A DNA stretch of 64,000 bases from an uncultured Candidatus Binatia bacterium (GCA_965218425.1 OZ244621.1:2279369-2343368), one strand, 5' to 3'; positions 8,318 through 38,463 are shown, counted from the stretch's first letter. Made by a program: numbers and translations. The notes: generated by a model from the sequence alone, not told the origin.

Positions 8318-8350
8318 TTTTTGACCCTCCTCACCGGATTCGCGACTGGA

Positions 8351-9631
8351 TCAAGTGACCAAAGCCCGCATTCTCGAGGCTCCCTGTTGATTGGTGACGC
8401 CGGCAACGTTCGCAGCGGCGACCTTCGTCGGTCCGGCCAACACCCTCCTCAACTCCGGGGTCGCGGCGATGATCCGATCCACCGGTGCCAACGTGTAATT
8501 CGTTCCGTTTCCGCCGTTGTATACGATGGCATTCACCTCCGGAAAGTTGAAGAGCAGAGCCGACTCGACCCGCCTGTCCCTTGCCATGTCCGAGACCATG
8601 ACAGTGGTTTTTATGCCCATACCTTCCAGGAGCCGAGCGGTCTCCGCCAAGTCGGCATGGGGAACACCGCCGCCGTACTTGGTTAGAATGACGGCGTCCG
8701 CTTTCAACGCCCACCTGACCAGATTCGCAGCCGTCCGACAGTTTCGGTCGCGGTCGAAGTTGTCGGAACCGGCAACGGTCGCCACCGTGCCCACGAAGTT
8801 GAGATGCCGCGCATGGTGGCGACCGTAGAGCTCCAGGATCACGGGGTGATTTTGATAGAAGTAGGTTTCCGCGCCGCCGATGGAAGAATGGTACGATGGG
8901 ACGACGGCGCCGTCCAGCCACTCGTCGGGATGAAGCGGGATGGGCAGCATCCCTTCCGTGTTGGCGCCATAGAGAATGGGCTCGTCCACGCCGGGCTTTC
9001 GCTGGCGCGAGAAGATCTGGCCTACATATGCGACCCGGGGAAGCCCCTCGCGTCCCGCCTCCGCGGGACCCGCCGGGTCGAATTGACGGGTGGATGCCGC
9101 AGGCTGACTCGCCGCAATGCGGGCCATATGAACCGAGAGCCTGAGACCGGCCCGACGATACGCTTTTCCGATGCTTTGAGCGGGCAACTCCGAACGCGTA
9201 CGGGGAATCGCCACCAGGTGGTGCAACGAGGAGTAATTGCTGCCTTCAGCGGCTGCCCCGCTCATCTCCAATACCCGGCCCGTCACGCCCCTGGACTCTC
9301 CCGGAGACCTCTCCGCCAGAACGGTGACGACGGCTCCTTCGAGCACATGGGTCGTCCCCATGCCCGCCGTTTCCGGCGCACCCAGGATGCCCGGGAAATC
9401 AGGGCTTGAGCCCTCTCCTTTAGCTCTGGGCTCGATGATGTCGAAGACGGGCGCGGCCCGACAACTCTCGCCGGGGCGCACGATTTGGAAATCCACGCCG
9501 GTAAGGGCATCGTCTTCAAGAACCAACCGGCGCAGTTCCTCCGGATCGACGACGAGGACCGAGCCGTCGAGACGGGCCGGTGTTTCCAAGCGGATCTCCG
9601 TGATGGGGTGACATGCCAGGGTCAAACGCAT
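8351..9631 (-). CDS. grdE: glycine reductase component B alpha/beta proprotein (GrdE family)
   Basis: MRLTLACHPITEIRLE...IVRPGESCRAAPVFDIIEPR... matches GrdE N-terminus; ~425 aa; internal N-C pair (DRDRNCR) as possible pyruvoyl-forming self-cleavage site. Confidence 0.75.
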   Translation of the reverse strand: MRLTLACHPITEIRLETPARLDGSVLVVDPEELRRLVLEDDALTGVDFQIVRPGESCRAAPVFDIIEPRAKGEGSSPDFPGILGAPETAGMGTTHVLEGAVVTVLAERSPGESRGVTGRVLEMSGAAAEGSNYSSLHHLVAIPRTRSELPAQSIGKAYRRAGLRLSVHMARIAASQPAASTRQFDPAGPAEAGREGLPRVAYVGQIFSRQRKPGVDEPILYGANTEGMLPIPLHPDEWLDGAVVPSYHSSIGGAETYFYQNHPVILELYGRHHARHLNFVGTVATVAGSDNFDRDRNCRTAANLVRWALKADAVILTKYGGGVPHADLAETARLLEGMGIKTTVMVSDMARDRRVESALLFNFPEVNAIVYNGGNGTNYTLAPVDRIIAATPELRRVLAGPTKVAAANVAGVTNQQGASRMRALVT

Positions 9632-9751
9632 TTTTCTTTCCTCTCGTGAAGACCCGGCAAGGGACCGGGAGTCCTCCAGGAGCGAGCGCAATCTCAGACC
9701 GGCTACTGCTCTGCTTATACCTCAAAGCAAGCTTGCCGCCAAGGGTTCAGC

Positions 9752-17636: not shown

Positions 17637-20633
17637 TCAGGCCTCGGGCCGTTCGTACGTCAGACCGAACACCGTGTCCGTCATCCAACGCCGAAAAGAC
17701 TCGTTGTCCATGAACTGCTTGAAAAGCTCGGTGTCGTCCTTGAGCACGGCCGTCATCACGCGCGCCAATGCCTTATCGTGCTCGATACGGGCGTTCTGCT
17801 TGTCGGAGTTCCGCTTCGCGTTCCGGTAGGCCGTGTCCGCCGCGACGCGATTCGGGATGTCCTCGGTGATCAGCCTGTGCACCCGGTCCGAGTCGGTCCA
17901 CCGGATATTCCCGAACATCTCGTTGAAGGTCTTGAGGATGTTCGAGAGGCGGTCGAGTTCGGGTTCAGGTTTACGGCCGCCGCCGCCGGCCGGCACCGGC
18001 CCGATCTCGGCTTCCTCGTCCGGCAGTCGGACCTGCATCGCCGCCTTCTTCTCGACCCGGTAGCTGTCCATGTCGATGGACTCAAGGATGCCTCTGGACA
18101 GATCCTCTTCCACGGGCGCGGGGAGCTTCGGCACGAGGAAGTTCAGGAAGATGGAGAGCCTCTCCCACTCGGCGTTCGTGTAGGGCAGGATAGCGGCGAG
18201 GAAGTCGTACGCGCGCCCGAACGCCTTGGCCTTGCCCTTGAAGTCCACCTGCCCGTCCTCGTCGAGCTGCTCCCTGTAATGCGCAACGCAGGCGTCGAGG
18301 ATGGGGTCGAGCCGGTCGCGGTCGGCCCCACCGAGGTAGAGCGTCACGAGCCGGTCGATCTCCGCGTCGGCATAGACCTGGTAGCCGTCGAGGGCGGCCT
18401 TGAGGTCGTGCAGCTTGTTGGGATCGGTCTCCTCGCTCAGGATCGTCGTCCGGTAGTAGTCGGCGAACGCCGCTTGGATGGTGTTGGCATCGTTCATGAA
18501 GTCGAGGACGAACACGTCGTGTTTCTGCGGGTGCGCCCGGTTGAGACGCGACAGCGTCTGGACCGCCTTGATCCCGGACAGGACCTTGTCCACGTACATC
18601 GTGTGCAACAGCGGCTCGTCGTACCCGGTCTGGAACTTGTCGGCGCAAATGAGGAACCGATACGGGTCCTGCCGGATCTCGTCGGCGATCCGCCCGGGCG
18701 GGAAGCCGTTGAGGGACGCCTCACTGACCTTACCCCCGCCATACTCGTGCTCGCCCGAGAAGGCCACGATGGCCTGATACGGGCTCCTGCGCTCCAGGAG
18801 GTACTGCCGGATCGCGTGGTAATACTGGACCGCGCGCTCGATGCCGCCCGTCACCACCATCGCGCGGGCCTTGCCGCCGATCTTGTGGAGCGCCAGCACC
18901 TGTTCGTGGAAGTGGTCCACCATGATCTCGGCCTTGAGCCGGACGGCATGGTCGTGGCTCTCGACGTAGCGGCGCAGCTTCTTGCGGGCGCGCTTGGTGT
19001 CGAACTCGGGATCACCCTCGATCTTCTTGACGAGCTTGTAGTAGCTCTCGACCGGCGTGTAGCGCCCGAGCACGTCCAGGATGAAGCCCTCCTGGATCGC
19101 CTGCTTCATGGTGTAGCCGTGGAACGGTCGGCGCCTGGTCTTCCCGCCCGCGTCGTACGCTTCGCCGAAGGTCTCCAGCGTCTTGTTCTTGGGCGTGGCG
19201 GTGAAGGCGAAGTAGCTCGCGTTCGTGAGGAGCTTCCGCGCGTCCATGATGCGGTTGATCATGTCCTCGGCGGTCTCGTCCTCCTCCTCGGCGCCCGCCT
19301 CGGAGAGCGCCATGTTGAGCGCTGCCGAGGTCCTGCCGCCCTGGCTGGAATGCGCCTCGTCGATGATGATGGCGAAGCGCCGGCCCCGCTGCTCGTTCCC
19401 GATCTCTTCGAGGATGAACGGGAACTTCTGCACCGTCGAGATGATGATCTTCTTGCCGCTCTCGATAAACGCGCGGAGGTCGCCCGAGCGTTCGGCGTGA
19501 CCGACGGTGGCCCCGACCTGGGCGAACTGCTTGACCGTGTCGCGGATCTGCTTGTCGAGGATGCGCCGGTCGGTTACCACGATGATGGAGTCGAACGCCT
19601 CCGCGCCGTCTTTCCTGAGCCCGATCAACTGGTGGGCGAGCCAGGCGATGGAGTTGGACTTCCCGCTGCCGGCCGAGTGCTCGATGAGATACCGTTTCCC
19701 TGCGTCGTGCCGGCCGACGTCCGCCAAGAGGTTCCGCACCACGTCGAGCTGGTGGTAGCGCGGCCAGATCTGCACCGCACTCCTCTTGCCCGTCTTCTCA
19801 TCCTTGGCCTCGACGACCTGCGCATAGTTCTCCAGGATGTCGGTCAGCCCGTTGCGGGTAAGCAGGCGCTTCCAGAGGTAGTCGGTCTTGAGGCCGTTCG
19901 GGTTGGGCGGATTGCCCGCGCCGTCGTTCCAGCCCAGGTTGAAGGGCAGGAACCACGAACCCTTGCCCTTGAGGTGCGTGCAGAACCGCACCTCGTGGTC
20001 GTCCACCGCGAAGTGCGCCACGCAGCGGCCAAACTCGAAGAGCTTCTCGCGCGGGTCGCGGTCGCGTTTGTATTGCTGGACGGCGTCCTCGACAGTCTGC
20101 TTGGTGAGGCTGTTCTTCAGCTCGAAGGTGGCTACCGGCAGGCCGTTGATGAACAGGCCCAGGTCGAGAGCGAGCTGCGTCTCGTCGCGGCTGTAGCGGA
20201 GCTGGCGCGTGACCGAGAAGCGGTTCTGGGCGTAGCGTTCAGCGGCGAGGGGGTTGCCGGGAGACGGCGCGCCGTAGAAGAGTTCGGCGTGATGCGGCCC
20301 GTCCTTGACCCCCTTGCGGAGCACGTCGATGACGCCGCGCTTGCCGACCTCGCCTTGAAGACGCGCCAGGAACTTGCGCCGCGTCGGGCCGTCCTCTTCC
20401 AGGGCGAGCACCTCGGACGCCTTCGGTTGCGTCTCCCGCAGGAACTCCGAGAGCTGGACCAGGTCCACGCAATACTCCCGGTCGTAGTCGTTCGGGTTGC
20501 CGCAGATCCAGCCGGCGCCATAGGCGGCCGGACGCTCGCGCACCACGCCCGCTTGCGCCGGATCGCAGGGGGCTCCCGTCAGAGCCGCGCAGATGAGGCT
20601 TTCAAGTCCCTTCTCGCCGGTGTCGGTGGTCAC
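17637..20633 (-). CDS. hsdR: type I restriction-modification system endonuclease subunit R (HsdR)
   Basis: 998 aa; N-terminal endonuclease region, helicase motif I (HSAGSGKSNSIAW), DEAH box (IIDEAHSSQ), motif VI region; full length for the family. Confidence 0.9.
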   Translation of the reverse strand: MTTDTGEKGLESLICAALTGAPCDPAQAGVVRERPAAYGAGWICGNPNDYDREYCVDLVQLSEFLRETQPKASEVLALEEDGPTRRKFLARLQGEVGKRGVIDVLRKGVKDGPHHAELFYGAPSPGNPLAAERYAQNRFSVTRQLRYSRDETQLALDLGLFINGLPVATFELKNSLTKQTVEDAVQQYKRDRDPREKLFEFGRCVAHFAVDDHEVRFCTHLKGKGSWFLPFNLGWNDGAGNPPNPNGLKTDYLWKRLLTRNGLTDILENYAQVVEAKDEKTGKRSAVQIWPRYHQLDVVRNLLADVGRHDAGKRYLIEHSAGSGKSNSIAWLAHQLIGLRKDGAEAFDSIIVVTDRRILDKQIRDTVKQFAQVGATVGHAERSGDLRAFIESGKKIIISTVQKFPFILEEIGNEQRGRRFAIIIDEAHSSQGGRTSAALNMALSEAGAEEEDETAEDMINRIMDARKLLTNASYFAFTATPKNKTLETFGEAYDAGGKTRRRPFHGYTMKQAIQEGFILDVLGRYTPVESYYKLVKKIEGDPEFDTKRARKKLRRYVESHDHAVRLKAEIMVDHFHEQVLALHKIGGKARAMVVTGGIERAVQYYHAIRQYLLERRSPYQAIVAFSGEHEYGGGKVSEASLNGFPPGRIADEIRQDPYRFLICADKFQTGYDEPLLHTMYVDKVLSGIKAVQTLSRLNRAHPQKHDVFVLDFMNDANTIQAAFADYYRTTILSEETDPNKLHDLKAALDGYQVYADAEIDRLVTLYLGGADRDRLDPILDACVAHYREQLDEDGQVDFKGKAKAFGRAYDFLAAILPYTNAEWERLSIFLNFLVPKLPAPVEEDLSRGILESIDMDSYRVEKKAAMQVRLPDEEAEIGPVPAGGGGRKPEPELDRLSNILKTFNEMFGNIRWTDSDRVHRLITEDIPNRVAADTAYRNAKRNSDKQNARIEHDKALARVMTAVLKDDTELFKQFMDNESFRRWMTDTVFGLTYERPEA

Positions 20634-20651: not shown

Positions 20652-20969
20652 TCAGATCGGGACCTCTCTCAGTTCACCGGGGCGTATTTCGTCAAGGACA
20701 GTGCGATTCTCTTCTATCCGCGGCTGGATATAGGGCCATGCCGTGGACAGCAGGACGACAATCGCCAGTCGCCTATCTGTGAGATTCCGCTGGTATCGCA
20801 TATTCTGGTCAGTGGTGATGAGGACTTCGTAGCCTTCCTGCTCGGCCTCCTCAACCAAGTCTCCATTTCCGAGTCCTGACTATCCTTGCTCCGCTGCCGT
20901 ATCCACCGAGTGTCCGTGCAGATGCCCTCGAAGCGGCTTAGGCGTTCCCTGGTCGAATAGAATCTTCAC
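20652..20969 (-). pseudogene. DUF5615-family (PIN-like, toxin-like) gene with premature in-frame TAG
   Basis: Minus-strand translation from a GTG overlapping the DUF433 stop: (M)KILFDQGTPKPLRGHLHGHSVDTAAEQG-TAG-SGLGNGDLVEEAEQEGYEVLITTDQNMRYQRNLTDRRLAIVVL... matches DUF5615. The TAG at 20880-20882 falls where family members carry a conserved Trp (TGG). The supplied ORF track lists the distal part as '+', but the + strand there encodes only the antisense read-through of hsdR. Confidence 0.65.
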
Positions 20970-21193
20970 GGTTCTACGGAAACTTTGAGGGACTTTGCCG
21001 CGTGTTCGAGAACGGCTCTGACCTTCCATTCCTCCACGCCCTCGAACCAATCCAGGAACTGTTCTATCGTGGCGCCGCTCTCAAGGTTCTCGAAGAGGGC
21101 AGATACGGGCACTCTGGTTCCGGTGAACACCCAGGCTCCACTAAGCCTGCCGGGTACGCTTTCGACTGCCGGGCACTTTCCCCAGTCCGTCAT
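20966..21193 (-). CDS. DUF433-family protein (antitoxin-like partner of DUF5615)
   Basis: MTDWGKCPAVESVPGRLSGAWVFTGTRVPVSALFENLESGATIEQFLDWFEGV is a typical DUF433 sequence; the gene is immediately upstream of, and translationally coupled to, the DUF5615 gene. Confidence 0.75.
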   Translation of the reverse strand: MTDWGKCPAVESVPGRLSGAWVFTGTRVPVSALFENLESGATIEQFLDWFEGVEEWKVRAVLEHAAKSLKVSVEP

Positions 21194-21996
21194 ACCGTCA
21201 CCTCGGCAGGAGGGTGTAGGTTTCTATCTACACGGTCTGTCAATGGGCCGTCTTCCTCTGACGAGTCCTGCTCGTCCGCCTCATCGGGCAACCGTGCCGC
21301 CGCTTCGCGAACGTCGAGCTTGCCGGTGACCACGTCGGCGATGAGGCGGGTGCGGTACTCGCGGAGGAGGTTGATTTGGTGCTGGGCGCGGTCAATAGCA
21401 ACGTCGATAATGGCGGCAGCTTTGTCGAGATACGTAACGATGGCGGCTTGTTCGGGGAGGGGGGGTAAAGCAAGGATGAGAGCTTTGACCATGCCCGAGT
21501 TAAGCCCGCGCATGATCGAACCCTTCCCCGCAACCGCGATCTGCTTCTTCACATAGGTGGACTCGTCAATAAGCCGCGAGGCGAATCTGACATTGATGCT
21601 AACGTCAGTTCGCAATCGAAGGAGATGCGAATCCATGATACCCATGGGGGCATCGTCAGGAACATAGGTACACCTTCCGGTTGTTCCCATCATCGTCACC
21701 AACAGATCATTTGGGAGCACTTTGCAAGCGGATAGTTCGTTGAATTTCTCTTGGTCGACGAATTTCGTGCCGCGATCAAAGTCCCTGGCAATGACGTTGG
21801 CCTGGCCGTACACTTTGTAACCCGATGGTGACATCTGTTCGAGCTTCAGTTGGCTGCCGAAAGGGCCGATCTTAATCCCGTCATAAGTGCGGAGCTTTCG
21901 GCGAAGTGCGTCAACCTCCCAATGCACTGGAACCTCGCCCAGCCATGGCACGCCAGAGTCCTTCATCGCGGGGTAGGGCTTGAGATCGGCGATCAT
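21190..21996 (-). CDS. hsdS: type I R-M specificity subunit HsdS, half-size (single target-recognition domain plus conserved C-terminal coiled-coil)
   Basis: N-terminal conserved MKDSGVPWLGEVPVHWEV, one TRD, C-terminal LLREYRTRLIADVVTGKLDVREAAARLP. ~268 aa (full-size HsdS ~400-470). Confidence 0.7.
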   Translation of the reverse strand: MIADLKPYPAMKDSGVPWLGEVPVHWEVDALRRKLRTYDGIKIGPFGSQLKLEQMSPSGYKVYGQANVIARDFDRGTKFVDQEKFNELSACKVLPNDLLVTMMGTTGRCTYVPDDAPMGIMDSHLLRLRTDVSINVRFASRLIDESTYVKKQIAVAGKGSIMRGLNSGMVKALILALPPLPEQAAIVTYLDKAAAIIDVAIDRAQHQINLLREYRTRLIADVVTGKLDVREAAARLPDEADEQDSSEEDGPLTDRVDRNLHPPAEVTV

Positions 21997-22127
21997 GCTT
22001 CAGCCTCTCTGTTACCCATTTGCTTTTCGAAGGCTTGGCGCACGAGGCCCATCACGTAAGGCGGTTCGTCCGGCGTGCTCAAGACTACCTCCACGTCGCC
22101 GTTTCCACTGTGACCGATTCCCGTCAT
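21993..22127 (-). CDS. small hypothetical ORF (44 aa) overlapping the hsdS start (ATGA)
   Basis: MTGIGHSGNGDVEVVLSTPDEPPYVMGLVRQAFEKQMGNREAEA; coupling geometry only; could be a remnant of the upstream truncated gene. Confidence 0.2.
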   Translation of the reverse strand: MTGIGHSGNGDVEVVLSTPDEPPYVMGLVRQAFEKQMGNREAEA

Positions 22128-22321
22128 ATCCCGAGCCTGACCCCTGGGACTGGTTGCATTTCATTGCGCCTGCATCGCGCTGCGTAGGCATTGAAGTTCT
22201 CCGGAAAAGCGCGTTTGAACTGAAGCGCAATTCCGCGCCCCATGACCCCGACGCAGTTGACGGTATTGACCAGAGCTTCGGCTTCTTCGGCGAGGATGTC
22301 GCCGGTCTTGTATTCGATCAT
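22124..22321 (-). pseudogene. darG: DarG-like macrodomain (ADP-ribosyl glycohydrolase antitoxin) N-terminal fragment
   Basis: MIEYKTGDILAEEAEALVNTVNCVGVMGRGIALQFKRAFPENFNAYAARCRRNEM matches the N-terminal macrodomain of DarG antitoxins. ORF stops after 65 aa (full length ~340 aa); no DarT toxin gene nearby. Confidence 0.6.
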
Positions 22322-22454
22322 GGCCTTTCCCCTTCCTCGTCAGTAATACCACTCTTTCTTGATTTCAACAGGAGATCGTTCTCGGGAATGATAGAAGGCA
22401 GACGGTCTACATGGACGATGTGGTAGATCTTGGGATCGGCGGGTACCGGCATGG

Positions 22455-22891
22455 TCAGTACTCGGCATCCGACAGTTCGACATCTTGGTCAATGGGTTCG
22501 CGCCATTCCTCAAACTCATCGACTGGCTCCGGTCCCTCGACCTCGTCCGGGAGTCTTGCCGCCGCCTCGCGCACATCGAGCTTGCCGGTGACAATATCGG
22601 CGATGAGTCGGGTGCGGTATTCGCGGAGAAGGGCAAGTTCGCCGTGCGAGAGGTCAATAGCACGCCGTGCGTCTGCCGACTCTTTGCCGACGACCTCGAC
22701 GATAGTGCGCTGCTCCTCCTGTGGCGGACACAGCAACTTGATACGAAGGAACTCCTCCGGGTACATCCTCAGTCGTGACGAGCGGATACCCGTTGACCGG
22801 CGGATGTACTCGCTCTTATATGACGCCGTACGCAGCAGGAGATCAGCGTACTCGGCAAGCAGTCTCGAAGAGCGGTGTGGTTGGTAGACAG
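22455..22891 (-). pseudogene. hsdS: hsdS C-terminal portion, separated from its N-terminal portion by an IS3-family insertion
   Basis: Translation from the IS boundary reads ...YQPHRSSRLLAEYADLLL...LLREYRTRLIADIVTGKLDVREAAARLPDE (HsdS TRD2 plus C-terminal repeat). Joining 24160.. to ..22887 restores a continuous reading ...GIVSPSYAV-YQPHRS... Confidence 0.8.
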
Positions 22892-24159
22892 TGACCTTGC
22901 CCCCTAAAACGAGTCCAGGTGAAATGTTAGGGATTTTGATTTTAGGAAGGAGGCAAGGATGGCAAGAAAGCGATTTACGGCCGAGCAGATTATCCTCAAG
23001 CTGCGTGAGGCGGAGGTGAGCTTGGCCCAAGGGAAGGCGGTGGGCCAGGTGTGCAAGCAGGTGGGGGTAACCGTGCAGACCTACTACCGGTGGAGGAAGG
23101 AATATGGAGGCCTGAAGATGGATCAGGCCAAGAGGCTCAAGGCCTTGGACAAGGAGAATGCGCGGTTGAAGAAGCTGGTGGCGGATCTATCGCTGGACAA
23201 CCAGATCCTGAAGGAAGTGTCCTCGGGAAACTTCTAGGCCCGGCGAAGAGGAGACGAGCGGTGATATGGGCCAGAGAAAGATTGGGACCTGATCGAGTCT
23301 CCGAACGCCGGGCTTGCCAAGTGTTGGGACAGCCGCGATCGACGCAACGAAGAGTCCGAGAGATCCCGGAAGAGGAAGCAAGACTAGTGGCTCGGATGAT
23401 GGAGCTGGCCAGCGAATACGGGCGATACGGCTACCGGAGGATTACGGCCATGCTGCGTGGGGAGGGGTGGAAGGTCAACCACAAGCGAGTGGAGAGGCTC
23501 TGGAGGCAGGAAGGGCTGAAAGTCCTCAGCCGTCAGCCTAAGCGAGGGAGGCTCCGGTTGACTGATGGCTCCTGCATTCGCCTGAGACCGGCGCATCGAA
23601 ACCATGTGTGGAGTTATGACTTCGTGCACGAGCGAACCGAAGACGGTCGGGCCTTTCGGCTGTTGAGCATCCTGGATGAATACACCCGGGAGTGCTTGGC
23701 GATTGATGTGGCCAGACGGATGAATCACCGGGATGTGCTGGAACGGTTAGCGGAGCTATTCGTGGAACGGGGCGTGCCGCAGTCCCTTCGGTCCGACAAT
23801 GGCCCCGAGTTTACGGCTCAGGCTATCCGGGACTGGCTCAAGGCCATTGGTGTCAGGACACTCTACATCGAGCCTGGCAGTCCTTGGGAGAATGGCTACG
23901 TGGAGAGTTTTAACGGAAAACTCAGGGATGAGCTGCTCAACCGGGAGGTGTTTGAAACCCTGAGGGAAGCTCAGGTGCTGATCGAAAGATGGAGAAGAGA
24001 GTATAACCAGCGGCGGCCTCACAGCGCCCTGGGCTATCGTTCTCCGGCACCGGAGGCCTTTCTGCCCAGAGCGCAGGCTGGGAATTCATCCCCATGGGCT
24101 GGACTCCAGATAATTCCGGCTCTAACTTAAAGGGTGGTACCACTCCTGGGGGCAGGTCA
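22892..24159 (+). mobile_element. IS3-family insertion sequence (orfA HTH plus orfB DDE integrase), 1268 bp, imperfect terminal IRs TGACCTTGCCCCC / GGGGGCAGGTCA, 4-bp target-site duplication ACAG
   Basis: orfA 22959..23237 ([20 protein letters not shown]...[18 protein letters not shown]); overlapping orfB 23051..24130 in the -1 frame with the DDE core (…[10 protein letters not shown]…DNGPEFT…[20 protein letters not shown]…). TSD ACAG at 22888-22891 and 24160-24163. Confidence 0.85.
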
Positions 24160-25154
24160 ACAGCATACGAGGGGCTGACTATTCCAGTCTGCCTAGCAAC
24201 GCCCAGAGCGCCCATCCAAGCCCACATCGTATTGATGACCAGATCGCCGGGCCTACACAACTTGTGCCCGACGTTCGACACCGCCATAAACATCGTGATG
24301 TTCTTCTCACTTCGCGGCGTTACTCCGGTAATGTGAGACACGGACAGCAATTCCTCTGAGCCGGTCTCAGAGCGCTCATCCGTTTCCCGGAAGCACCATT
24401 TCGCTGGCCTTATTTCCCAATGCGCCGGCACCTTTCCCAGCCACTCAACGCCGGAGTCCTTGTAGGCCGGGTAGGGCTGGCCGGTGCAGATGTCCACTTG
24501 GCCCGTGACGGCGCGGTGGATGATGGCCTGCTTCTGCTCCTCCAGCAACTTGATCAGCTTCTGCTTGGCGCGGATGTAGCGCCGGATGCGCCGGTCGGCG
24601 TGGTCGAGGAAGCGGACGATGGCAGCCTGTTCGGGGAGGGGGGGGATAACTGTTCTAATCTCTCGGATTTCACTTTCACTAATAGCGGGTACTGGCCCTG
24701 GTTTCGCAATTGTTGCTAAATCAAGGTGCTCCAGCAGCAACAAGACGAACTGCGGGTTGCCACGACGGACGATGCAGCCCATCAGATTGTTGTCTATACA
24801 GCATGGACGCTCGACCACTCGCCTCTTGTTGGTCAATAGTGCCCCGCCAACTTTAGGGAACACGATTGTTCTAGACGGGAAAATGTTTGCGCCAAGTCTT
24901 GATGCGGTACTACGAGCAACGGAGTTATTCCAACTCCCCATCACTCTGTCGTTATTGGGAAGGTTCATATCGGAGACTTTGAAAAACGGCAGTTCCAGGT
25001 TCTGTTGGCCTTGTTCCAAAATTGGAAATCCAGCTCCGCTACTGAAATGCCCTAACCGCTTCAAGGCTATCACTTCCCAATGCGACGGCACATCACCGAG
25101 CCACTCGACACCGGAGGGCTTGTAGGCGGGGTGAGAGTGGATTCTGGCAGTCAT
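24160..25154 (-). pseudogene. hsdS: hsdS N-terminal portion (TRD1 plus central conserved region plus start of TRD2), interrupted by the IS3 element
   Basis: MTARIHSHPAYKPSGVEWLGDVPSHWEV...PLPEQAAIVRFLD...KQKLIKLLEEQKQAIIHRAVTGQVD...YKDSGVEWLGKVPAHWEI...GIVSPSYAV then runs into IS sequence. Confidence 0.8.
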
Positions 25155-27743
25155 GTGAGACCTGCACTTTGCACCGGGACACGAACGGCCAGCCGGTCTC
25201 TCACTTCCTGGTAGATTGGAATGTTGATTCCTTCGGCAACTTCCAGCGTCACGGCCAAGCCGAACCGTATCGGAGCAGGTATATCACTGGCATCGGCACG
25301 ACAGTTGACTTTGATCGCAATGGTGTCCCCGTCCTGGAAGGCCACCGCCCTAGCACCTTCAAGAACCTCGTGCTGAACCGTGCTTCTTTGGACCGCAAAG
25401 CCGTCGGCGCAAACGCGGTCGGGTGCTATATCGTATTTGGGATTGAACCAAAGGTGAGCGATCCGATAGTTCTGACTGGTACTGCTAACCGGAGAGATCC
25501 ATGCGAGCGTAATTGTCAAACGCCTGCGCTCGTTCACAGCTGACAGGCTGGGTGGCAGTGGAAGGATGAACTCAGCTCCTTCGCCATCGCTGAGTTCGCC
25601 AAACCCCAACACCGTGACGCGTTGCTCCGTGCCAGCCATGACCTTCGCGAGATCGACCGAGCCGTATCCCAAGAACCGTCCGAGGTACTCCTTGAGGACT
25701 CGGCTATTTTGGGCGTTCTTCAGGGCGGACTCGTATCGGAATCTAGCATCTGCCCAGTCTGCGCTGTGCACAAGAAGTGCTTTGATCAAAACCACGTCGA
25801 AGTCCGTGGGCAGGGGCGTGTCTAGTTGCCGGCGGAGTTGCTCGATCAGTTCATAAAGAAAGTATGCACCGCGTGCAGCAAGAGCCGCGGCATCGCTTGT
25901 GCCTCTTGTGTGCATTTTTCGGTTCAACTGCCCCGCGTTACCGGGAGTAGCAACGCAGTGTCCAGGAGGGCTAGTAAACCCGTTGGCCTGCAGAGTGGCC
26001 TTGGTATGAGGTAGTTCCCATCTTCTCGCCCAGGAACTGCCTTCCGCCTGGCAGGAAAACATCGGGCTTAATAGCGCGCCGGTATCCTGGTCCATGAGCG
26101 CTGATCACGTTCGGTAAATCTGTCCCTACAAAAGGGTCGATCAGGCGGTTCAGCGAGGGGGATGACGCATCTGCATGTACTGCCCCAATTGTGAGGCCGT
26201 TCAGCGTCTCGGCAGGTGATAACAGCCGCCGGTTACGCGTGTCCATCGCAAGCGCCTTTACCACAGCTCGTTCCCGTTCTTCGGCTGTTAGGGTGCTTAG
26301 GTCAGACCTTGGAAGGTCCAACTCAATATCCTGGAGATGATTGCCTGCACTGACTATGAACAGGATGTTGTACTTCCATGAAAGCCAGTCCAGGAGTCGC
26401 GCCCAGGAACTCATCTCACGGATAAGAGGACGCGTTTGATCGCATATGGACAGATTGATAATGCGAACGCTGAGTGCTGCTGGTGGCTCACCGTTTTCGG
26501 TCTCGTATAATCTCCGCACCGACCTATGGATCAGGTCTATTGGCAGCACATTCGTGGGTATGGCTTCCTCGATGAATCGCCCGGTAGAGTCGCGTCGGGG
26601 TTGCATGACCGGTCTCGTGTACAGCGGTTTTCCTGTCGCATCGCCGTGTTCATTGAGGTCTCCATGACAGATAAGTGATGTCATTGCGGTGCCATGCACA
26701 CGCTCGTGTGCCTGGTAGGCGTTCTCGTAACCATCCGGATCGTCGATGATCAACCGTCCGTCGAGCAGTTGGTGTCCCGTCAGAGGCATGCCGTCGAACA
26801 AGGCCACGACGGGGTCTCCCTGGGGCAGCTCTGGCTTCGGCTCATCCTGAAGAGAATCCGTCTCCTCAGAATCTTCGGACATACGAATCGCGCACTGCCC
26901 GACCGGACGCAGGTGCATTATGTCTTCGCACTGAAGCAACCTAACCTCCTGGAAGGCATGGAGTCGGTCGATGATATCCTGGACTCGGGTTCGGTGTAGT
27001 CGTCCCAGAACGGCATGGTAAGCAATGTCAGGAATGACACATTGCTGGATCACTTCACCGTTCAAGGACGCGATAATTTCGCGAATATTGGATTCAGCCT
27101 GTTCTGGGCGTCTGTCATCCGCCCTGAACCATAACTCGATTTCGAAAGGAACGTTTTCTTGTCCGTACTGTAGGCGATCCTGCCAATCCTCCATGAGGCC
27201 GGTCTCCCGAATCCGATCCTCTGCGTCCCACGGCCGTATGGTATGGAGGCATTCGAATGCGTGTTTCCATGGAGCCAAGCCCCTGGCAAACTTCGTGTTA
27301 CGATTCTTCCGCCACTCTCGAAATAAGTTATACAATTCCTGTAACGCCTGCAGGTCAGTCATTACAAGGAAGAGTTGGCCTTTCAGTTGCTTGTCCGGAC
27401 TCTTCTCATCCTCGAAGCCGTAGTCGGGAGAAATGTCGTCGAGTTCGTATTCAGCTAACCACTCCAACCCCGACACCTTTTCCACCGCTCGGATAAAGTT
27501 CTGTATTGAGCCAATGGTTTCAATCACCAGGACCTGTTCAGGTTGAAGGCCAAGAGGATGATCCTGAAGGGCAAGGCGTTTTTTTTCCATGTTCTCTTGA
27601 AGGCGTTGGAACTGCGGCTCCAGCCGTTCTGCCTGTCGTGATGCGTCCGGGATACTAACTTTCCCTCCGCCTCCACCACGTTTAGCGCGTTCAGTGCGGG
27701 CCGGTTCAGAAAAGACAAGAAGCGGAAGGTTGGTCTCGGCCAT
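25151..27743 (-). pseudogene. ietS: IetS-like S8 (subtilisin-family) serine peptidase, catalytic residues split across two overlapping frames
   Basis: ORF 25971..27743 carries the Asp (VALFDGMP), His (HGTAMTSL) and Asn (SAGN) motifs. ORF 25151..26095, in another frame and overlapping by ~125 nt, carries the Ser motif (GTSDAAALA). A single original gene of ~860 aa is implied, split by a frameshift or by a sequencing error. Confidence 0.6.
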
Positions 27744-27745
27744 GA

Positions 27746-28741
27746 TTAACTGCTTGCCTCTCTACTACTGGACTCCTTGAGTGTGAACCGCTTCTTCCAA
27801 TGGTACAGGTGCTGTTCAACCATATGCTTAATGTTCCCACCCGGCTGTTCCAATACGATTTTTCGGAGGATGTCAGTCCCGAAGTCCTCGACTTCCGCGA
27901 AGCTCAAGCCCCGCATTCGCTGTCCGAGACTACGCGGGGATAGCCCGAGCGGATGTCCGGTCCGCTTCTCGAACCGATTGAACCACTCCTCAATCTGACT
28001 TTGAGTGGGCTGCGGGAGCTCCAATCGAATCTGGAAGCGGCGCCATACGGCACGGTCGAGAAGTTCAGGATGGTTGCTGGCCGTCACGACCACTACGTAG
28101 CTGGGAAGGGCATCGATCTGGAGCAGCAGCGAACTCACGACTCGCTTAATCTCTCCGGTTTCGTGCAGGTCACCGCGTTCCTTTCCCACCGAGTCGAACT
28201 CGTCGAAGAACAGCACACAGTGGCGAGATCTGGCGTGCTCGAAGACTTGGCTTATCCTTTGCGCAGTCTCGCCCAGGTAGCTGCCGATGACTGCTTCATA
28301 GCGGACTACCATGAATGGAACGCTCAAGGCGTCGGCAAGTGCCTCCGCCAGAGTGGTCTTGCCATTCCCTGGAGGCCCGGCAAGCAGTATGCGGTTGCGC
28401 GGTTCGAGGTTGTACGACCGAAGCAGATCGGCGCGGTGCTGTTCGGTCACCAGTTCGCGAATGGTTTCCTCAGCATCGGCGGATAGTATAAGATCCTGCA
28501 GGCGGCGTACCGGGACAACATCTGCCACGAGAGGACCTGCCACCGAATGGGACGACCGTGACGCTGGCTGCGCATAGCGACCGTTCTCGATCTGAAGCTG
28601 CGCAAGCAACCGATCGGCTAGAATGGTGTGGTTCTTCGCACGCTCGTCGGCAGCCAGTGCCTCGACGGTCTTCCGGACTTGGCTCTCGTCGCCTTGTCTA
28701 CTGGCCTTTATCAGGCTCAGGATCAAGTCTGATCGTGCCAT
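27746..28741 (-). CDS. ietA: IetA-like AAA+ ATPase
   Basis: 331 aa; Walker A LLAGPPGNGKTTLA, Walker B VLFFDEFD, sensor region VVVTASNHPELLDRAVWRRF; directly upstream of and abutting the S8 peptidase gene. Confidence 0.65.
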   Translation of the reverse strand: MARSDLILSLIKASRQGDESQVRKTVEALAADERAKNHTILADRLLAQLQIENGRYAQPASRSSHSVAGPLVADVVPVRRLQDLILSADAEETIRELVTEQHRADLLRSYNLEPRNRILLAGPPGNGKTTLAEALADALSVPFMVVRYEAVIGSYLGETAQRISQVFEHARSRHCVLFFDEFDSVGKERGDLHETGEIKRVVSSLLLQIDALPSYVVVVTASNHPELLDRAVWRRFQIRLELPQPTQSQIEEWFNRFEKRTGHPLGLSPRSLGQRMRGLSFAEVEDFGTDILRKIVLEQPGGNIKHMVEQHLYHWKKRFTLKESSSREASS

Positions 28742-28743
28742 GG

Positions 28744-30804
28744 TTATCTCCTGTTACTCTCGGCAGGACGGTTAGACGTTTCGGCTGCCATAATCTTCTG
28801 TAGCAACCCCTCGGTTTCCTTCTCCACTGCCAGAATATCCGCCCGGATCTCTTCCAGCGTGCGCAGCGGCTGCGGCTTGTAGAAGTAGCGGGTGAAGCTG
28901 ATCTCGTAGCCGGTCTTGACGCTCGCCGGGTCGTACCAGGCGTCAGGGGCATAGGGCAGCACCTCGCGGCGAAGGAATGCTTCAATTCCGCCTTCCTCCA
29001 ACAGCGGCGCCTGCTCGGTGTCCCGCAGGTCGGTGTCCGGCTCGTACTCGACGACAGCCGGCTTGCCTTTGACGGTCGCCTCGAACAGGCCGCGCAGGGG
29101 GTCGGGCTCGACGCCCTTCCTGTGGATCTTCTTGATGACGGGCGGCGCGCTCTCGTCCCTCTCGGCGGTCTCCTTGAGCGCCTTGATCTCCTTCGGCGCG
29201 TAGACGCGGTCGGGGTCTATCCCCGTGAGCCGGAGGGGCCGCTCGACCGTCACCTTCCGATACCCGAAGGCGGCGTTCGGGAAGATCTTCGACTGCTCGG
29301 TCTCCTCGAAGGCCAGGAACGTGTCGCAGATGCGCTGGATGTCCTCGTCGGACAGCTCGCAGTTCTTCTTGCCGAGGTTCTTCCGGAGCGGCTTGTACCA
29401 GGGCGCGGCGTCGATGAGCTGGACCTTGCCTTGGCGATGGGCGGGTTTCCGGTTGGTCAGCACCCAGATGTAGGTGGCGATGCCGGTGTTGTAGAACATG
29501 TTGAGCGGCAGCGCGACGATCGCCTCCAGCCAGTCGTTTTCGATGATTCAGCGGCGGATGTTGCTCTCCCCCTGACCGGCGTCTCCGGTAAAGAGCGACG
29601 AGCCGTTGTGGACCTCGGCGATGCGGCTTCCCAGAGGGGCGCCGTGCTTCATCTTCGAGAGCATGTTCGCCAGGAACAGCATCTGACCGTCGCTGGAGCG
29701 GGTGATGAGCGAGTACTCGGCATCGCCGCCGTGTTCGATCAGAAAGCGCCGGTCCTTGATACCCTCCTTGCCGCCCAGGCGCTCCAGGTCGCTCTTCCAG
29801 CTCTTGCCGTAGGGCGGGTTGGAGAGCATGAAGTCGAACTCGCGGGACGGAAAGGCGTCGTTGGAGAGCGTCGAGTGTTCCGGCCCCCCGATGATGTTGT
29901 CGGCGGCTTCCCCCTCGCCCTTGAGGAGGAGGTCAGCCTTGGCGATGGCGTAGGTCTCGGCGTTGATCTCCTGGCCGTAGAGATGGGTGGCCGCCTGCTT
30001 GCCGCGCTGCCCGGCAATCTGCGTCAACGCCTCCTCGGCCACCGTCAACATGCCTCCGGTGCCGCAGGCGCCGTCGTATACCAGGTAGGTCCCGGAGTCG
30101 ATCCGGTCGGCGACAGGCAGGAGGACCAGCTTCGCCATGAGCTGCACGGCATCGCGGGGGGTCCAGTGCTCGCCGGCCTCCTCGTTGTTCTCCTCGTTGA
30201 AGCGGCGGACCAGCTCCTCGAAGACCGTGCCCATCGCGTGGTTATCGAGGCCGGGGTGTTTGATCGACCCGTCGCCGTGGAGGACCGGGTGCGGACTCAG
30301 GTTCACGTCCGGCGAAAGGAACTTCTCGATCAGCGTGCCGAGGGCGTCGGCCTTGGACAGGCGGGGGATCTGGTTCCGAAACTCGAACTTCTCCAGGATG
30401 TCCTGCACGTTCGGCGAGAAGCCGTCGAGATACGCCTCGAAGTCGGCCTTGAGCTGCTGTTGGCCGGCGCGGGCCTTGAGGTCGGGCAGCGTGAACTTCG
30501 ATGTGTTGTGGAACGCCTGGCCGGCGGCCTGACGCAGTGCCTGGTCCTGGTGGATGATCTTCGCCTGGTCGAGCGAGGCCTTCATCTCCAGCACGGCCGG
30601 CTTGCTCGGCTCCAGGAGGGAGTCGAGCCGCCGCAGCACGGTCATGGGCAAGATCACATCCCGATACTTGCCGCGGACGTAGAGGTCTCGCAGCACGTCA
30701 TCCGCGATGCCCCAGATGAAGTTGGCGATCCAGCCGAGTTGAGATTGGTCCACGGGAATCCTGGAAAGGCTCTGCCGGGATGTCCTTTTCGGCCGCCCCG
30801 GCAC
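28744..30804 (-). pseudogene. hsdM: type I R-M N6-adenine DNA methyltransferase HsdM with in-frame TGA at a conserved Trp position
   Basis: ORF 29548..30804 contains the HsdM N-domain and catalytic NPPYG, and stops at TGA (29548-29550) in ...FTGDAGQGESNIRR-TGA-IIENDWLEAIVALP... The frame then continues into ORF 28744..29499 (MFYNTGIATYIWVLTNRK...). Confidence 0.75.
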
Positions 30805-37570: not shown

Positions 37571-38044
37571 TCAAATAGTGACACAAGGAACCGATTCCCG
37601 GTCAACCGGACGTTCAGCTTCAGCCAAGTTTCGAAGCGGCGTTGCCAAGGAGACTTCTCGCCTCCTCGAAGGATGTAATGCGAAGAGGACCGAGCACGCC
37701 GGCGTCTCGGCGGCCTCCGTTTGGCAGAAGAAAAACCGCCGGCTATCGAACTCCTCCGGGTCCGTCCAGTGCTCCAACAGTCGCTTGGTAATTCCCGTAA
37801 CGCCCGGATACCCGGCTTCGCGCCATGCCCGCACGCACGGCCGAATCCGGTTGACCAGAGGGATCTCGATGAAATGGCCCGGGTCATCGAATGATCGGGA
37901 GCCCTCCGAGGCAATGACGTATCCGGCCGGGCGACGACCTTCTGCAAGATCGAACAGATGCGTCGTCCGATCGTAACTCCAGTGCCGGGCCGGCTCCTCG
38001 TAGGGTGAGTTGACGATCAGCTGGTCAATAGTTGTTCGCGCCAT
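37571..38044 (-). pseudogene. N-terminal fragment of a type III restriction Res-subunit / DEAD-box helicase family protein
   Basis: MARTTIDQLIVNSPYEEPARHWSYDRTTHLFDLAEGRRPAGYVIASEGSRSFDDPGHFIEIPLVNRIRPCVRAWREAGYPGVTGITKRLLEHWTDPEE...RRFFFCQTEAAET matches the characteristic N-terminus of res-like helicases; ORF only 157 aa. Confidence 0.55.
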
Positions 38045-38046
38045 TA

Positions 38047-38463
38047 TCAGCCCTGTGAAGGAATGTCAGGCTCAGGCGGCACGAGTGGTTCGAGCAGGGC
38101 GATCAACCTTGGCAGGTCTTCCCGCACCGTTTGCCACACAATATCAAGGTTTATGCTGAAATACGCATGCCGACGATTTCCTCCCACGGAATGGCTGACA
38201 ACTGTCCGCGAGTGGTTTCGATTATCTGTAGTGGGGTCGGGTAGAGGGCCTAAGGTCCAGGGGCACGTTCCGGCTGAGTAGATCCGTGACCGCATGACCG
38301 TGTCGTCCAAAGTGAGCCTTCGCGTCAGCCGCACACGATCTTGCGGGCCTTCCAGCGTTTTCCGGTTCAGCAGCCGTTTCTGATACACCACCTGATTCTG
38401 TTCATCGATCAGTCCCACGACACTGTTGTTAGAGTGCAAGTCGATGACACCGTACAATTGCAT
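38047..38463 (-). mobile_element. IS110-family (DEDD) transposase N-terminal fragment
   Basis: MQLYGVIDLHSNNSVVGLIDEQNQVVYQKRLLN... matches IS110-family transposase N-termini; the rest of the ORF is out of family, so it is truncated or frameshifted. Confidence 0.45.

Follow-up and report, generated by a model that had tools for sequence, protein, structure and literature searches.

An IetAS-family gene pair with a frameshifted protease gene inside a damaged type I restriction-modification operon of an uncultured Candidatus Binatia bacterium

A 64,000-nt stretch of DNA from an uncultured Candidatus Binatia bacterium (GCA_965218425.1, OZ244621.1:2279369-2343368; hereafter the window) carries an AAA+ ATPase gene followed by a gene for a large S8 peptidase that is spread over two reading frames. 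The first-pass annotation had read the two genes as an IetAS-like module embedded in a type I restriction-modification (R-M) operon. This raises the questions of whether the pair belongs to the IetAS family beyond its generic domains, and whether the split protease gene reflects decay, an assembly error or a functional arrangement. In characterized IetAS systems, the two proteins have toxin and antitoxin roles and protease activity is required (PMC13069673, PMC5006074), and abortive infection is set off by a phage protein (10.1101/2022.08.27.505566). Anti-phage IetAS was described by Gao et al. (2020), and the system of B. cereus m1293 by Stokar-Avihail et al. (10.1101/2022.08.27.505566; PMC13069673).

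On the evidence of profile and pairwise comparisons, the locus is a genuine IetAS family member. The first gene, ietA (27746-28741, minus strand, 331 aa; PADLOC, Pfam and BLASTP), appears intact and its product equals that of relatives in size. The protein matched the PADLOC IetA profile over its full length (E 2.2e-146) and Pfam AAA (E 1.1e-31); other PADLOC IetA models followed at E 3e-90, 5e-78 and 3e-64, and the next family, TRIP13, reached just 1e-13. Walker A, Walker B, sensor and arginine finger are all present. The Walker A motif GPPGNGKT, already noticed in this 331-aa protein directly upstream of the S8 peptidase, lies at residues 122-129, Walker B (LFFDEFD) at 177-183, the pore loop (GSYLGE) at 153-158, the sensor (TASN) at 220-223 and WRRF at 233-236. 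With Cdc48/p97/VCP as its nearest solved structures (E about 1e-41 to 1e-43), IetA is, judged by sequence, a Cdc48-like protein of the classic AAA+ clade. The gene order is an AAA+ gene (~330 aa) immediately upstream of a co-oriented S8 gene (~840-870 aa), and ietA directly precedes ietS in all 78 assessable related loci as well as in pTiC58. The older PADLOC models for anti-phage IetAS (PDLC02195-02202) gave E-values of 5e-78 and 3e-64 for IetA and 2e-19 and 1e-18 for IetS, whereas the later models PDLC04232/PDLC04233 fit the window far better (2e-146 and 6e-222). Because the latter matches far exceed the former, the pair can be placed in a divergent IetAS clade, of which we found no experimentally tested member in the literature examined.

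The founding IetAS pair, that of Agrobacterium pTiC58, is a toxin-antitoxin and plasmid-stability module and shares with the window the two-gene order and a gap of a few bases (in the window, 2 nt separate the ietA stop from the start of ietS). Its IetA (NC_003065.3 97873-98859; 328 aa) was 35% identical to the window protein by BLASTP from residue 1 (E 1e-45), and the alignment takes in N-terminal sequence that is not part of the AAA domain. Its IetS (NC_003065.3 98863-101373) has 836 aa, compared with 863 aa for the window protein when restored in frame. Similarity outside the generic S8 domain was found for IetS too, in the PADLOC profile (positions 1-851) and with hhalign, which aligned the IetS family profile to pTiC58 IetS at a probability of 96.6% (columns 304-849 versus 285-832). 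The S8 and C-terminal domains of the two are colinear, but the N-terminal ~300 aa gave no alignment with pTiC58 IetS. Unlike the pTiC58 pair, for which no R-M genes are annotated alongside in the stretch examined, the window pair is chromosomal, lies inside a type I R-M operon and is frameshifted.

The 5' ORF of ietS (25971-27743, minus strand, 590 aa) encodes the N-terminal region followed by the first two thirds of the S8 domain; it ends in 12 out-of-frame residues. The 3' part of the gene lies in the +1 frame (25151-26008, minus strand) and encodes the Ser616 helix (GTSDAAA), the remaining S8 domain and a C-terminal beta-sandwich; the ORF that carries it (25151-26095, minus strand, 314 aa) has its own ATG and overlaps the 590-aa ORF by 125 nt in a different frame. 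As originally described, the Asp, His and Asn motifs (Asp317, His350 and Asn468) are in the first ORF and the Ser (Ser616 of GTSDAAA) is in the second. In a family alignment of 131 IetS sequences, His350, Asn468 and Ser616 were invariant and Asp317 was at least 90% conserved. The HMM comparison suggested in the first-pass annotation gave matches for IetA and IetS alike, with the two ORFs covering adjoining parts of a single 855-position profile (PDLC04233): residues 1-579 of the 590-aa ORF aligned to positions 1-570 (E 6.4e-222) and residues 31-309 of the 314-aa ORF to positions 569-851 (E 1.2e-93). Pfam Peptidase_S8 matched the 590-aa ORF at only E 3.3e-9. As with IetA, no other PADLOC model came close to the Iet models for IetS. 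No single polypeptide carries the full catalytic set of Asp, His, Ser and oxyanion Asn: the shift in frame falls after Asn468 and before Ser616, so that the nucleophile and the central helix are missing from the 590-aa product. As assembled, ietS is a pseudogene in which all four catalytic residues are encoded, with Ser616 off-frame. AlphaFold2 predicted IetS with a pLDDT of 93.9 and Foldseek returned ACT/ferredoxin-like matches for the N-terminal part; a sequence search of the PDB found no structure of an IetS relative.

The exact site of the frameshift, left to be located by alignment with homologues, is a single extra C within ACCT (26009-26011, minus strand; extra base at 26010/26011). The window reads AACTACCTCAT where four close relatives read AACTA-CTCAT; in longer form, GGAACTACCTCATACC stands against GGAACTA-CTCATACC in loci L003, L005, L089 and L090. 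Each of these four nucleotide alignments has a 1-nt gap at 26010/26011, and the unshifted relatives are 95-99.5% identical to the window (L090, 99.5%). The two frames join between GTT and HTKATL, and deleting the extra C in silico gave ...GEKMGTTHTKATLQ... in a protein of 863 aa that fits the GTTH-x-KATL consensus of the homologues. In four related loci, IetS is disrupted independently, at other positions.

Could the two ORFs nevertheless be functional, through a programmed +1 ribosomal frameshift or as a two-chain protease whose fragments reassemble? The ATG of the 314-aa ORF and its 125-nt overlap with the upstream ORF would fit such an arrangement, and no further support was found. The IetS homologues numbered 2,079, nearly all of them single chains of 857-876 aa, and of the 1,058 representative clusters at E < 1e-30, nearly all of the 150 listed measured ~850-880 aa; the one-chain form of these ~2,000 homologues shows that the split is not a natural one. 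None is split at the same site, the closely related loci are unshifted there, and the disruptions in other genomes sit at different positions. Moreover, ACC-UCA-UAC offers no slippery or stop-codon context, neither candidate start of the 3' ORF is preceded by a Shine-Dalgarno sequence, and in the AlphaFold2 model the break would part the Ser-bearing central helix from the remaining fold. We regard a functional split as barely credible and close to refuted; the earlier call of a frameshifted protease stands.

Whether the extra C exists in the cell is less clear-cut. It is conceivable, if on balance doubtful, that it arose as an error in the consensus of a long-read assembly of low coverage, that ietS is intact in the cell and that IetAS is potentially functional. 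Long-read coverage of the contig is only 8x (record name ctg256646_8x_l), and all that separates the window from L090, itself a 2x contig, are short indels in homopolymer length (A5/A4, A4/A5, G2/G3), a class to which C to CC belongs; it is because of this coverage and these indels among sister contigs that an error at 26010/26011 has to be considered. The absence of the base from all four relatives and a broken frame in an unrelated gene of the window, for enoyl-CoA hydratase, point the same way. Against an error, the longer alignments to L005 contain few indels (1 in 4,010 nt and 1 in 3,008 nt), a C/CC dinucleotide favours such errors only weakly, and the identical truncated 590-aa ORF is recorded on two contigs, although the second (4.46 Mb) is possibly not an independent assembly. 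The same operon also carries two lesions that do not resemble errors, a base change that creates a stop codon and an insertion sequence (IS) with a target duplication, which makes relaxed selection on ietS plausible. Even if the extra C were an error, the R-M system would remain disabled by these two lesions, in hsdM and hsdS.

The tightly coupled operon reads hsdM-ietA-ietS-hsdS-(DarTG stubs)-hsdS'-(DUF433 pair)-hsdR. IetAS lies between hsdM (upstream) and hsdS (downstream), as the first-pass annotation had it, and this arrangement recurs in 16 of the 78 related loci. The methyltransferase gene hsdM (28744-30753, minus strand; PADLOC MTase_I PDLC03029) contains an in-frame stop: its N part matched MTase_I at E 2.6e-147 (profile 4-370 of 661) and its C part at E 1.8e-74 (best stretch, profile 388-479). 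Read through the stop, it is colinear with the intact 666-aa HsdM of L005, and comparison with L005 shows a TGA nonsense codon in place of a conserved Trp codon, TGG (29548-29550, minus strand; window CGCCGCTGAATCATC, ...SNIRR-stop-IIENDWLEA..., versus CGCCGCTGGATCATC). TGA is a normal stop in the source genome, where it ends 11 of 27 long ORFs, hsdR included.

The start of hsdS overlaps the ietS stop (ATGA). Its 5' part (24160-25154, minus strand; PADLOC Specificity_I E 6.7e-59, Pfam Methylase_S) encodes the first target-recognition domain and the start of the second, and its 3' part (22455-22891, minus strand) is displaced by a 1,268-bp IS3-family element (22892-24159, plus strand). This element has orfA with HTH_Tnp_1 and orfB with rve/rve_3 (Pfam), terminal repeats TGACCT(T)GCCCCC and a 4-bp target duplication, ACAG, at 22888-22891 and 24160-24163. 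Its in silico excision gave an in-frame HsdS of 475 aa, with ...SPSYAVYQPHRSS... continuous across the excision site. At this place L090, at 99.5% identity, has no match to the element, and its hsdS 3' half differs there.

Next come stubs in place of full-length DarT (~200 aa) and DarG (~330 aa): 44 codons of the DarT N-terminus (22318-22452, minus strand; PADLOC E 3.2e-7, profile 5-35 of 196) and 65 codons of the DarG macro domain (22124-22321, minus strand; PADLOC E 3.4e-30, profile 1-57 of 329; Pfam Macro E 3.2e-8). A second, half-size hsdS (21190-21996, minus strand; PADLOC Specificity_I E 2.1e-50, only at profile 217-442 of 448) has one target-recognition domain and the conserved C-terminal region, and shares a duplicated 3' end with the first hsdS. 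A DUF433 gene (20966-21193; Pfam E 2.1e-12) and a 68-aa ORF (20652-20858) without a family match in the Pfam and PADLOC searches, which together span 20652-21193 on the minus strand, may form a small pair of toxin-antitoxin type, located between hsdS and hsdR. The restriction/translocase gene hsdR (17637-20633, minus strand, 998 aa; PADLOC REase_I E 5.1e-40; precomputed Pfam domains HSDR_N, ResIII, SWI2_SNF2 and T1R_D3-like) appears intact and is 87% identical in nucleotides to that of L003. PADLOC thus recovered hsdM, hsdS and hsdR in one cluster, with only hsdR intact. The damage is clustered: three inactivating lesions and the DarTG stubs fall within ~13 kb, and a partial scan of the remaining 51 kb of the window found one frame break.

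Since the protease is broken by one base and the operon carries two further inactivating lesions, the locus is an ordinary decaying defence island with a degraded copy of the known IetAS pair, not a new system. The complete account, a bona fide IetAS in an R-M operon with ietS broken by one base, a dead R-M system and an island in decay, is the one we favour as fairly probable. An intact IetS (~860 aa) would consist of two N-terminal ferredoxin-like modules, the S8 catalytic domain and the C-terminal beta-sandwich, and would act as toxin or abortive-infection effector. IetA, as antitoxin, would keep it harmless in an ATP-dependent manner, by a mode of restraint that we infer, until a phage cue frees or activates the protease and the cell is arrested or dies. 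The toxin-antitoxin behaviour, abortive infection, phage trigger and need for protease activity are taken from publications on IetAS systems other than this one; neutralization of IetS toxicity by IetA and anti-phage protection likewise come from other family members only (PMC13069673; 10.1101/2022.08.27.505566). In the window, the inserted C at 26010/26011 would have killed the module and left ietA as an orphan antitoxin, and the TGG-to-TGA codon in hsdM and the IS3-family insertion in hsdS would have killed the host R-M system. With both dead, the island would be in neutral decay after loss of function.

We surveyed the neighbourhoods of this IetAS clade in the 78 related loci. Type I R-M genes adjoined IetAS in 25 of them (~32%), at two different insertion points and with two HsdM/HsdR families (62-80% and about 37-40% identical to the window proteins). 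In nine further loci IetAS followed DUF1156 and DUF499 (Hma-like) genes, and in two it followed ResIII and RE_endonuc genes. The five-gene hsdM-ietAS-hsdS-hsdR unit is kept across phyla (Chloroflexota, Neomoorella, Nitrospirae, Desulfosarcina, Spirochaetia). The clade has repeatedly been inserted into R-M-type operons.

These recurrent settings and the cross-phylum unit could mean that the clade is functionally coupled to its host R-M system, as a PrrC-like guard that fires on R-M inhibition or by using the HsdR translocase, a reading that applies whether or not the window copy is broken. The helicase requirement of ietHAS (PMC13069673), the precedent of PrrC (PMC12707154) and the non-random co-localization of RM III and ietAS in E. 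coli (bioRxiv 10.1101/2022.08.21.504612) agree with it. However, 44 of the 78 loci have no type I or Hma neighbour (12 of these 44 with short flanks), cloned IetAS works alone (Gao 2020, cited in PMC13069673; 10.1101/2022.08.27.505566), and many unrelated systems are embedded likewise (Payne et al., 2024, 10.1101/2024.01.29.577857). The varied hosts and insertion points favour generic benefits, such as co-transfer and co-expression, over specific protein-protein coupling, and we consider coupling unlikely. A shade less likely still is the stronger proposal of a dedicated second-line module wired mechanistically to helicase/translocase restriction systems (type I, Hma-like, type III-like). If it were true, IetA and IetS together might detect a stalled or inhibited restriction complex, or might rely on HsdR much as ietHAS relies on its SNF2 helicase; the conserved hsdM-ietA-ietS-hsdS-hsdR unit would then be one composite system rather than a product of co-transfer alone.

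In ietHAS (Liu-DS4; PMC13069673), IetAS is joined by an SF2/SNF2-type helicase that is needed for defence and contributes to toxin control. The window likewise has IetAS in one operon with the SF2 translocase HsdR. IetH, however, is a dedicated, DrmD-like SNF2 protein whose gene accompanies ietAS, whereas the window helicase belongs to the type I R-M system. PrrC (EcoprrI) and TgvAB (V. cholerae VPI-2) are, as here, defence genes lodged between hsd genes in type I operons (PMC12707154; PMC11411939); PrrC, an ABC-ATPase anticodon nuclease, and TgvAB, a GmrSD-like type IV enzyme, are both unrelated to IetAS. PrrC is almost exclusively embedded (Payne et al., 2024), whereas no more than about a third of the loci of the window's clade have type I genes alongside. 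A PrrC-type guard in the family sense was rejected for the window: the PADLOC search gave no PrrC match, IetA is of the classic AAA+ clade, and ~32% of loci are type I-adjacent.

Embedding of IetAS in restriction operons is already known. Supplementary Table 8 of Payne et al. (2024; 10.1101/2024.01.29.577857) lists cassette CAS_00044 with the remark 'Incorporate into IetAS model'; these two genes, embedded in BREX, DISARM or type I R-M, a setting like that of the window, were recognized as IetAS and added to PADLOC. Judging by model numbering and match strength, CAS_00044 would correspond to models PDLC04231-04234 and may be of this very clade. This earlier merger into PADLOC, the operon-wide damage and the possible low-coverage error are points that the first-pass annotation had not raised.

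The ORF map reproduced exactly the three minus-strand ORFs that the first-pass annotation had assigned to an IetAS-like pair. The ietA gene (27746-28741, 331 aa) matched the PADLOC IetA model over its full length (E 2.2e-146) as well as the Pfam AAA family (E 1.1e-31), and its product has an aromatic pore loop (GSYLGE). Two ORFs of 590 aa (25971-27743) and 314 aa (25151-26095) follow, overlapping by 125 nt in different frames. As they matched abutting stretches of the same PADLOC IetS model, PDLC04233 (positions 1-570 of 855, E 6.4e-222, and positions 569-851, E 1.2e-93), they represent consecutive pieces of one gene, ietS. The catalytic Asp, His and Asn are indeed encoded by the 5' ORF and the Ser (GTSDAAA) by the 3' ORF, as had been read from the sequence. 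In an alignment of 131 sequences, His350, Asn468 and Ser616 (numbered on the restored protein) were invariant in the family and Asp317 was at least 90% conserved. We also retrieved the founding IetAS pair of Agrobacterium pTiC58 (NC_003065.3, 97873-101373). Its IetA was 35% identical to the window IetA from residue 1 (E 1e-45), and its IetS aligned with the IetS family profile (columns 304-849 to 285-832, probability 96.6%), but not with the first ~300 residues of the window-type IetS. Together with the PADLOC matches, the IetA similarity and the partial IetS alignment support the IetAS-like identity and show that the window pair is a divergent but genuine IetAS.

At the junction of the two ietS ORFs, frame A reads GEKMGTTSYQGHSAGQRVY followed by a stop and frame B reads PHTKATLQANGFTSPPG, while homologues carry GT(T/A)H-x-KATL. 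Loci L003, L005, L089 and L090, close relatives found in sister metagenome samples, carry GGAACTA-CTCATACC in place of the GGAACTACCTCATACC of the window. Since each of the four nucleotide alignments contains this one gap of 1 nt, the suspected frameshift corresponds to a single extra C at 26010/26011, and its removal gives an 863-aa protein. Homologues proved to be single chains: 2,079 matches at E ≤1e-20 among 5.8 billion proteins were nearly all 857-876 aa long, and 1,058 clusters (50% identity, E <1e-30) came from an exhaustive HMMER search, nearly all of the 150 listed measuring ~850-880 aa. Protein P0122 from L003, in the same 90%-identity cluster as the window ORF, is intact at 857 aa. 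These lengths rule out a natural two-chain S8 protease. A programmed frameshift is also very unlikely, as relatives at 95-99.5% nucleotide identity are unshifted; examination of the shift site revealed neither a slippery nor a stop-codon context.

We modeled the restored IetS with AlphaFold2 using 131 diverse sequences (pLDDT 93.9, pTM 0.95); an earlier run with 30 sequences reached a pLDDT of 50 and was discarded. The high-confidence model predicts an S8 domain preceded by two N-terminal modules of ferredoxin-like fold and followed by a beta-sandwich. In the model, the shift lies between the strands at 571-573 and 581-586, so that the helix bearing Ser616 (615-637) is lost, and the 590-aa product cannot act as an active subtilase. 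No PDB entry matched the IetS alignment at E <1e-3 in a profile search, and the nearest solved relatives of IetA were the Cdc48/p97/VCP rings (E ~1e-41 to 1e-43). IetAS has been described as a plasmid-stability module, with IetS as protease toxin and IetA as ATPase antitoxin, and also as a phage defence system that needs protease activity (PMC13069673; PMC5006074). A Bacillus cereus IetAS works through abortive infection, with expression of a phage SPbeta gene as its trigger (bioRxiv 10.1101/2022.08.27.505566). A possible mechanism is that an ATP-driven IetA ring engages IetS, plausibly through its pro-domain-like N-terminal modules, and holds it inactive; a phage cue would lift this restraint, and the freed protease would then arrest the cell.

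The pair lies within a compact minus-strand operon. Between the stop of hsdM and the start of ietA lie 2 nt, as they do between the stop of ietA and the start of ietS; in ATGA, the hsdS start codon overlaps with the ietS stop. While hsdM does flank the pair as first annotated, it is not intact as had been assumed, since it carries an in-frame TGA at 29548-29550 (ESNIRR-stop-IIENDWLEA). In L005, this codon is TGG (Trp) and the hsdM ORF is uninterrupted (666 aa). Recoding of the TGA was rejected on the basis of this Trp codon and of the use of TGA as an ordinary stop in the window, where it ends 11 of 27 long ORFs; Trp is, moreover, not a selenocysteine-type position, although the organism probably decodes Sec at other sites. 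Low-level read-through would regenerate wild-type HsdM, since UGA, the leakiest of the stop codons, is near-cognate to tRNA-Trp. The hsdS gene is interrupted at 22892-24159 by an IS3-family element of 1,268 bp, present in one copy within the window, with intact orfA (HTH_Tnp_1) and orfB (rve), terminal repeats TGACCT(T)GCCCCC and a 4-bp target duplication (ACAG). Its ends were missed by an inverted-repeat finder and were found by aligning both flanks by hand. In silico removal of the element and one duplicate gave an in-frame HsdS of 475 aa with two target-recognition domains. Nothing matching the element was found at the hsdS site of L090, the 3' half of whose hsdS is not alignable over this interval.

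Further along the minus strand, two stubs lie within 22124-22452: 44 codons of DarT (PADLOC E 3e-7, profile 5-35 of 196) and 65 codons of the DarG macro domain (E 3e-30, profile 1-57 of 329). Both remnants also occur in L090. A half-size second hsdS (21190-21996, profile 217-442 of 448) has a 3' end that duplicates that of the first hsdS. Next, at 20652-21193 and just upstream of hsdR, come a gene of the DUF433 family and an ORF of 68 aa without family match, possibly a small toxin-antitoxin pair. The hsdR gene downstream of these two appears intact (998 aa). A promoter and terminator scan of 20.5-31.5 kb gave fewer matches than shuffled controls.

The window derives from a 1.495-Mb metagenome contig labelled 8x, and the extra C in ietS must be weighed against the error profile of such assemblies. 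An assembly error in an otherwise intact ietS is, in our view, rather unlikely, and we consider with moderate confidence that the frameshift is real. Over 4.7 kb, the window is 99.5% identical to the 2x contig L090, which comes from a different sample. The four indels between them, namely the C/CC at issue and three others (A5/A4, A4/A5 and G2/G3), are all changes in the length of short homopolymers; a difference of the C/CC type is thus also what errors in these assemblies typically look like. In the longer alignments with the 14x contig L005, however, indels were few (1 in 4,010 nt and 1 in 3,008 nt). A search for independent support did not find the extra C in any of L003, L005, L089 and L090, yet two recorded contigs, not necessarily independent assemblies, carry the identical truncated 590-aa ORF. 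The two other lesions of the operon, the hsdM TGA and the IS in hsdS, are not error-like, which also argues for a genuine mutation. Pointing the other way, a second frame break occurs in an unrelated minus-strand gene at 43378-44168, encoding an enoyl-CoA hydratase, in which the ECH_1 profile is divided between ORF 43881-44168 (profile 7-67) and ORF 43378-43884 (88-249). Whether it marks another pseudogene or another consensus indel, this break bears on the trust to be placed in the ietS frameshift.

Three independent inactivating lesions and the DarTG remnants are found within ~13 kb, while one frame break was seen in the remaining 51 kb of the window, which were scanned in part. Such clustering is as expected from the neutral decay of a disused defence island. 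The toxin/effector gene has been lost along with the methylase and specificity genes of the R-M system, and the antitoxin gene and hsdR remain. ietA is of normal length with every motif retained, and the damage pattern fits a toxin-antitoxin logic, in which the toxin gene ietS was hit and the antitoxin gene kept. For annotation, ietS and hsdM should be recorded as pseudogenes, the IS as lying in hsdS and DarTG as stubs only; the locus offers a small example of defence-island decay.

We compared the window with 80 related loci (40-95% identity) from species-representative genomes, of which 78 were assessable, and classified the neighbours by tblastn with the window Hsd proteins and by Pfam. In all 78, ietA was immediately 5' of ietS. 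The hsdM-ietAS-hsdS arrangement was found at 16 loci (including three cut by a contig end) and hsdM-hsdS-ietAS-hsdR at four; hsdR was directly downstream at two loci with a short upstream flank, ietAS preceded hsdM at two, and one had hsdM upstream only. At nine loci (L012, L057, L059, L065, L066, L068, L077, L080 and L081), ietAS came directly after Hma-like genes encoding a methylase (DUF1156) and an ATPase (DUF499). At the remaining 44 loci, 12 of them with short flanks, neither type I nor Hma-like genes were detected alongside; this class includes two (L006 and L054) with ietAS after a ResIII and RE_endonuc gene. Hence, type I R-M genes adjoin about one third of the loci of this clade, at two insertion points, and Hma-like genes about one tenth. 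An Eco57I/MmeI-like methylase gene was seen downstream of ietAS in L040. Across the hsdM-ietAS-hsdS group, which spans several phyla, HsdM and HsdR were 62-80% and 66-77% identical to the window proteins, indicating that the five-gene unit travels as a cassette.

IetS was independently disrupted at other sites in four other species-representative genomes: by a break near aa 81-83 (L041), a frameshift near aa 294-304 (L053), a 2.8-kb insertion with a methylase-HNH gene and an IS1595-type transposase (L052) and an IS4-like insertion (L076). A Fic/DOC gene and a 105-aa ORF lie between hsdM and ietA in L005 (8515-9998) and L003 (679-2166), and this insert is bracketed by two copies of ~220 bp from the 3' end of hsdM; L005 hsdM additionally lacks 1 nt close to its 3' end. 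Neither insert nor duplication is present in the window, reflecting either a deletion between the repeats or the ancestral state.

The IetAS module of the window is a degraded copy of a known, already catalogued defence system. Defence genes embedded in type I R-M operons have been described for PrrC (PMC12707154) and TgvAB (PMC11411939), and such embedding was surveyed systematically by Payne et al. (2024; bioRxiv 10.1101/2024.01.29.577857). Their Supplementary Table 8 lists CAS_00044, a two-gene embedded cassette with 514 homologues, with the remark 'Incorporate into IetAS model', which probably explains the good fit of the later models PDLC04232 and PDLC04233 to the window proteins. In Escherichia coli, RM III and ietAS are reported to co-localise non-randomly (bioRxiv 10.1101/2022.08.21.504612). 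Our census is compatible with a functional coupling of this IetAS clade to host restriction systems but does not require it, because no such system was seen alongside at more than half of the loci, and unrelated systems are commonly embedded too. The loci L011, L021 and L029 are intact, and an intact five-gene cassette in a cultured strain, Neomoorella carbonis ACPs (L013), makes any dependence of embedded IetAS on the host R-M system directly testable.

Elsewhere in the window, a minus-strand DUF3179 gene (742-1908) contains an in-frame TGA at ~1486-1488 (IAVTW-TGA-PLCYTAIV), with the Pfam match continuing on both sides (profile 1-64 and 74-292). The TGA occupies what we take to be the position of the first Cys of a CxxC motif, and the product is a candidate selenocysteine (UxxC) protein. 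A scan of the whole window at Rfam gathering thresholds gave no match, and hence no RNA element or SECIS family for this in-frame stop or that of hsdM. Glycine/sarcosine/betaine reductase genes are present on the minus strand at 7277-9691, comprising a GrdB (selenoprotein B) ORF (7277-8317; Pfam GRDB 2-347 of 347) that stops at a TGA and a component B gene (8351-9691). These genes, including GrdB, are consistent with a selenocysteine-decoding organism. Finally, a minus-strand HepT-like ORF (38047-38463, Pfam E 7e-6) adjoins a 157-aa ORF without match, and together (37571-38463) they may form an MNT/HepT-type toxin-antitoxin pair ~7 kb beyond hsdM.
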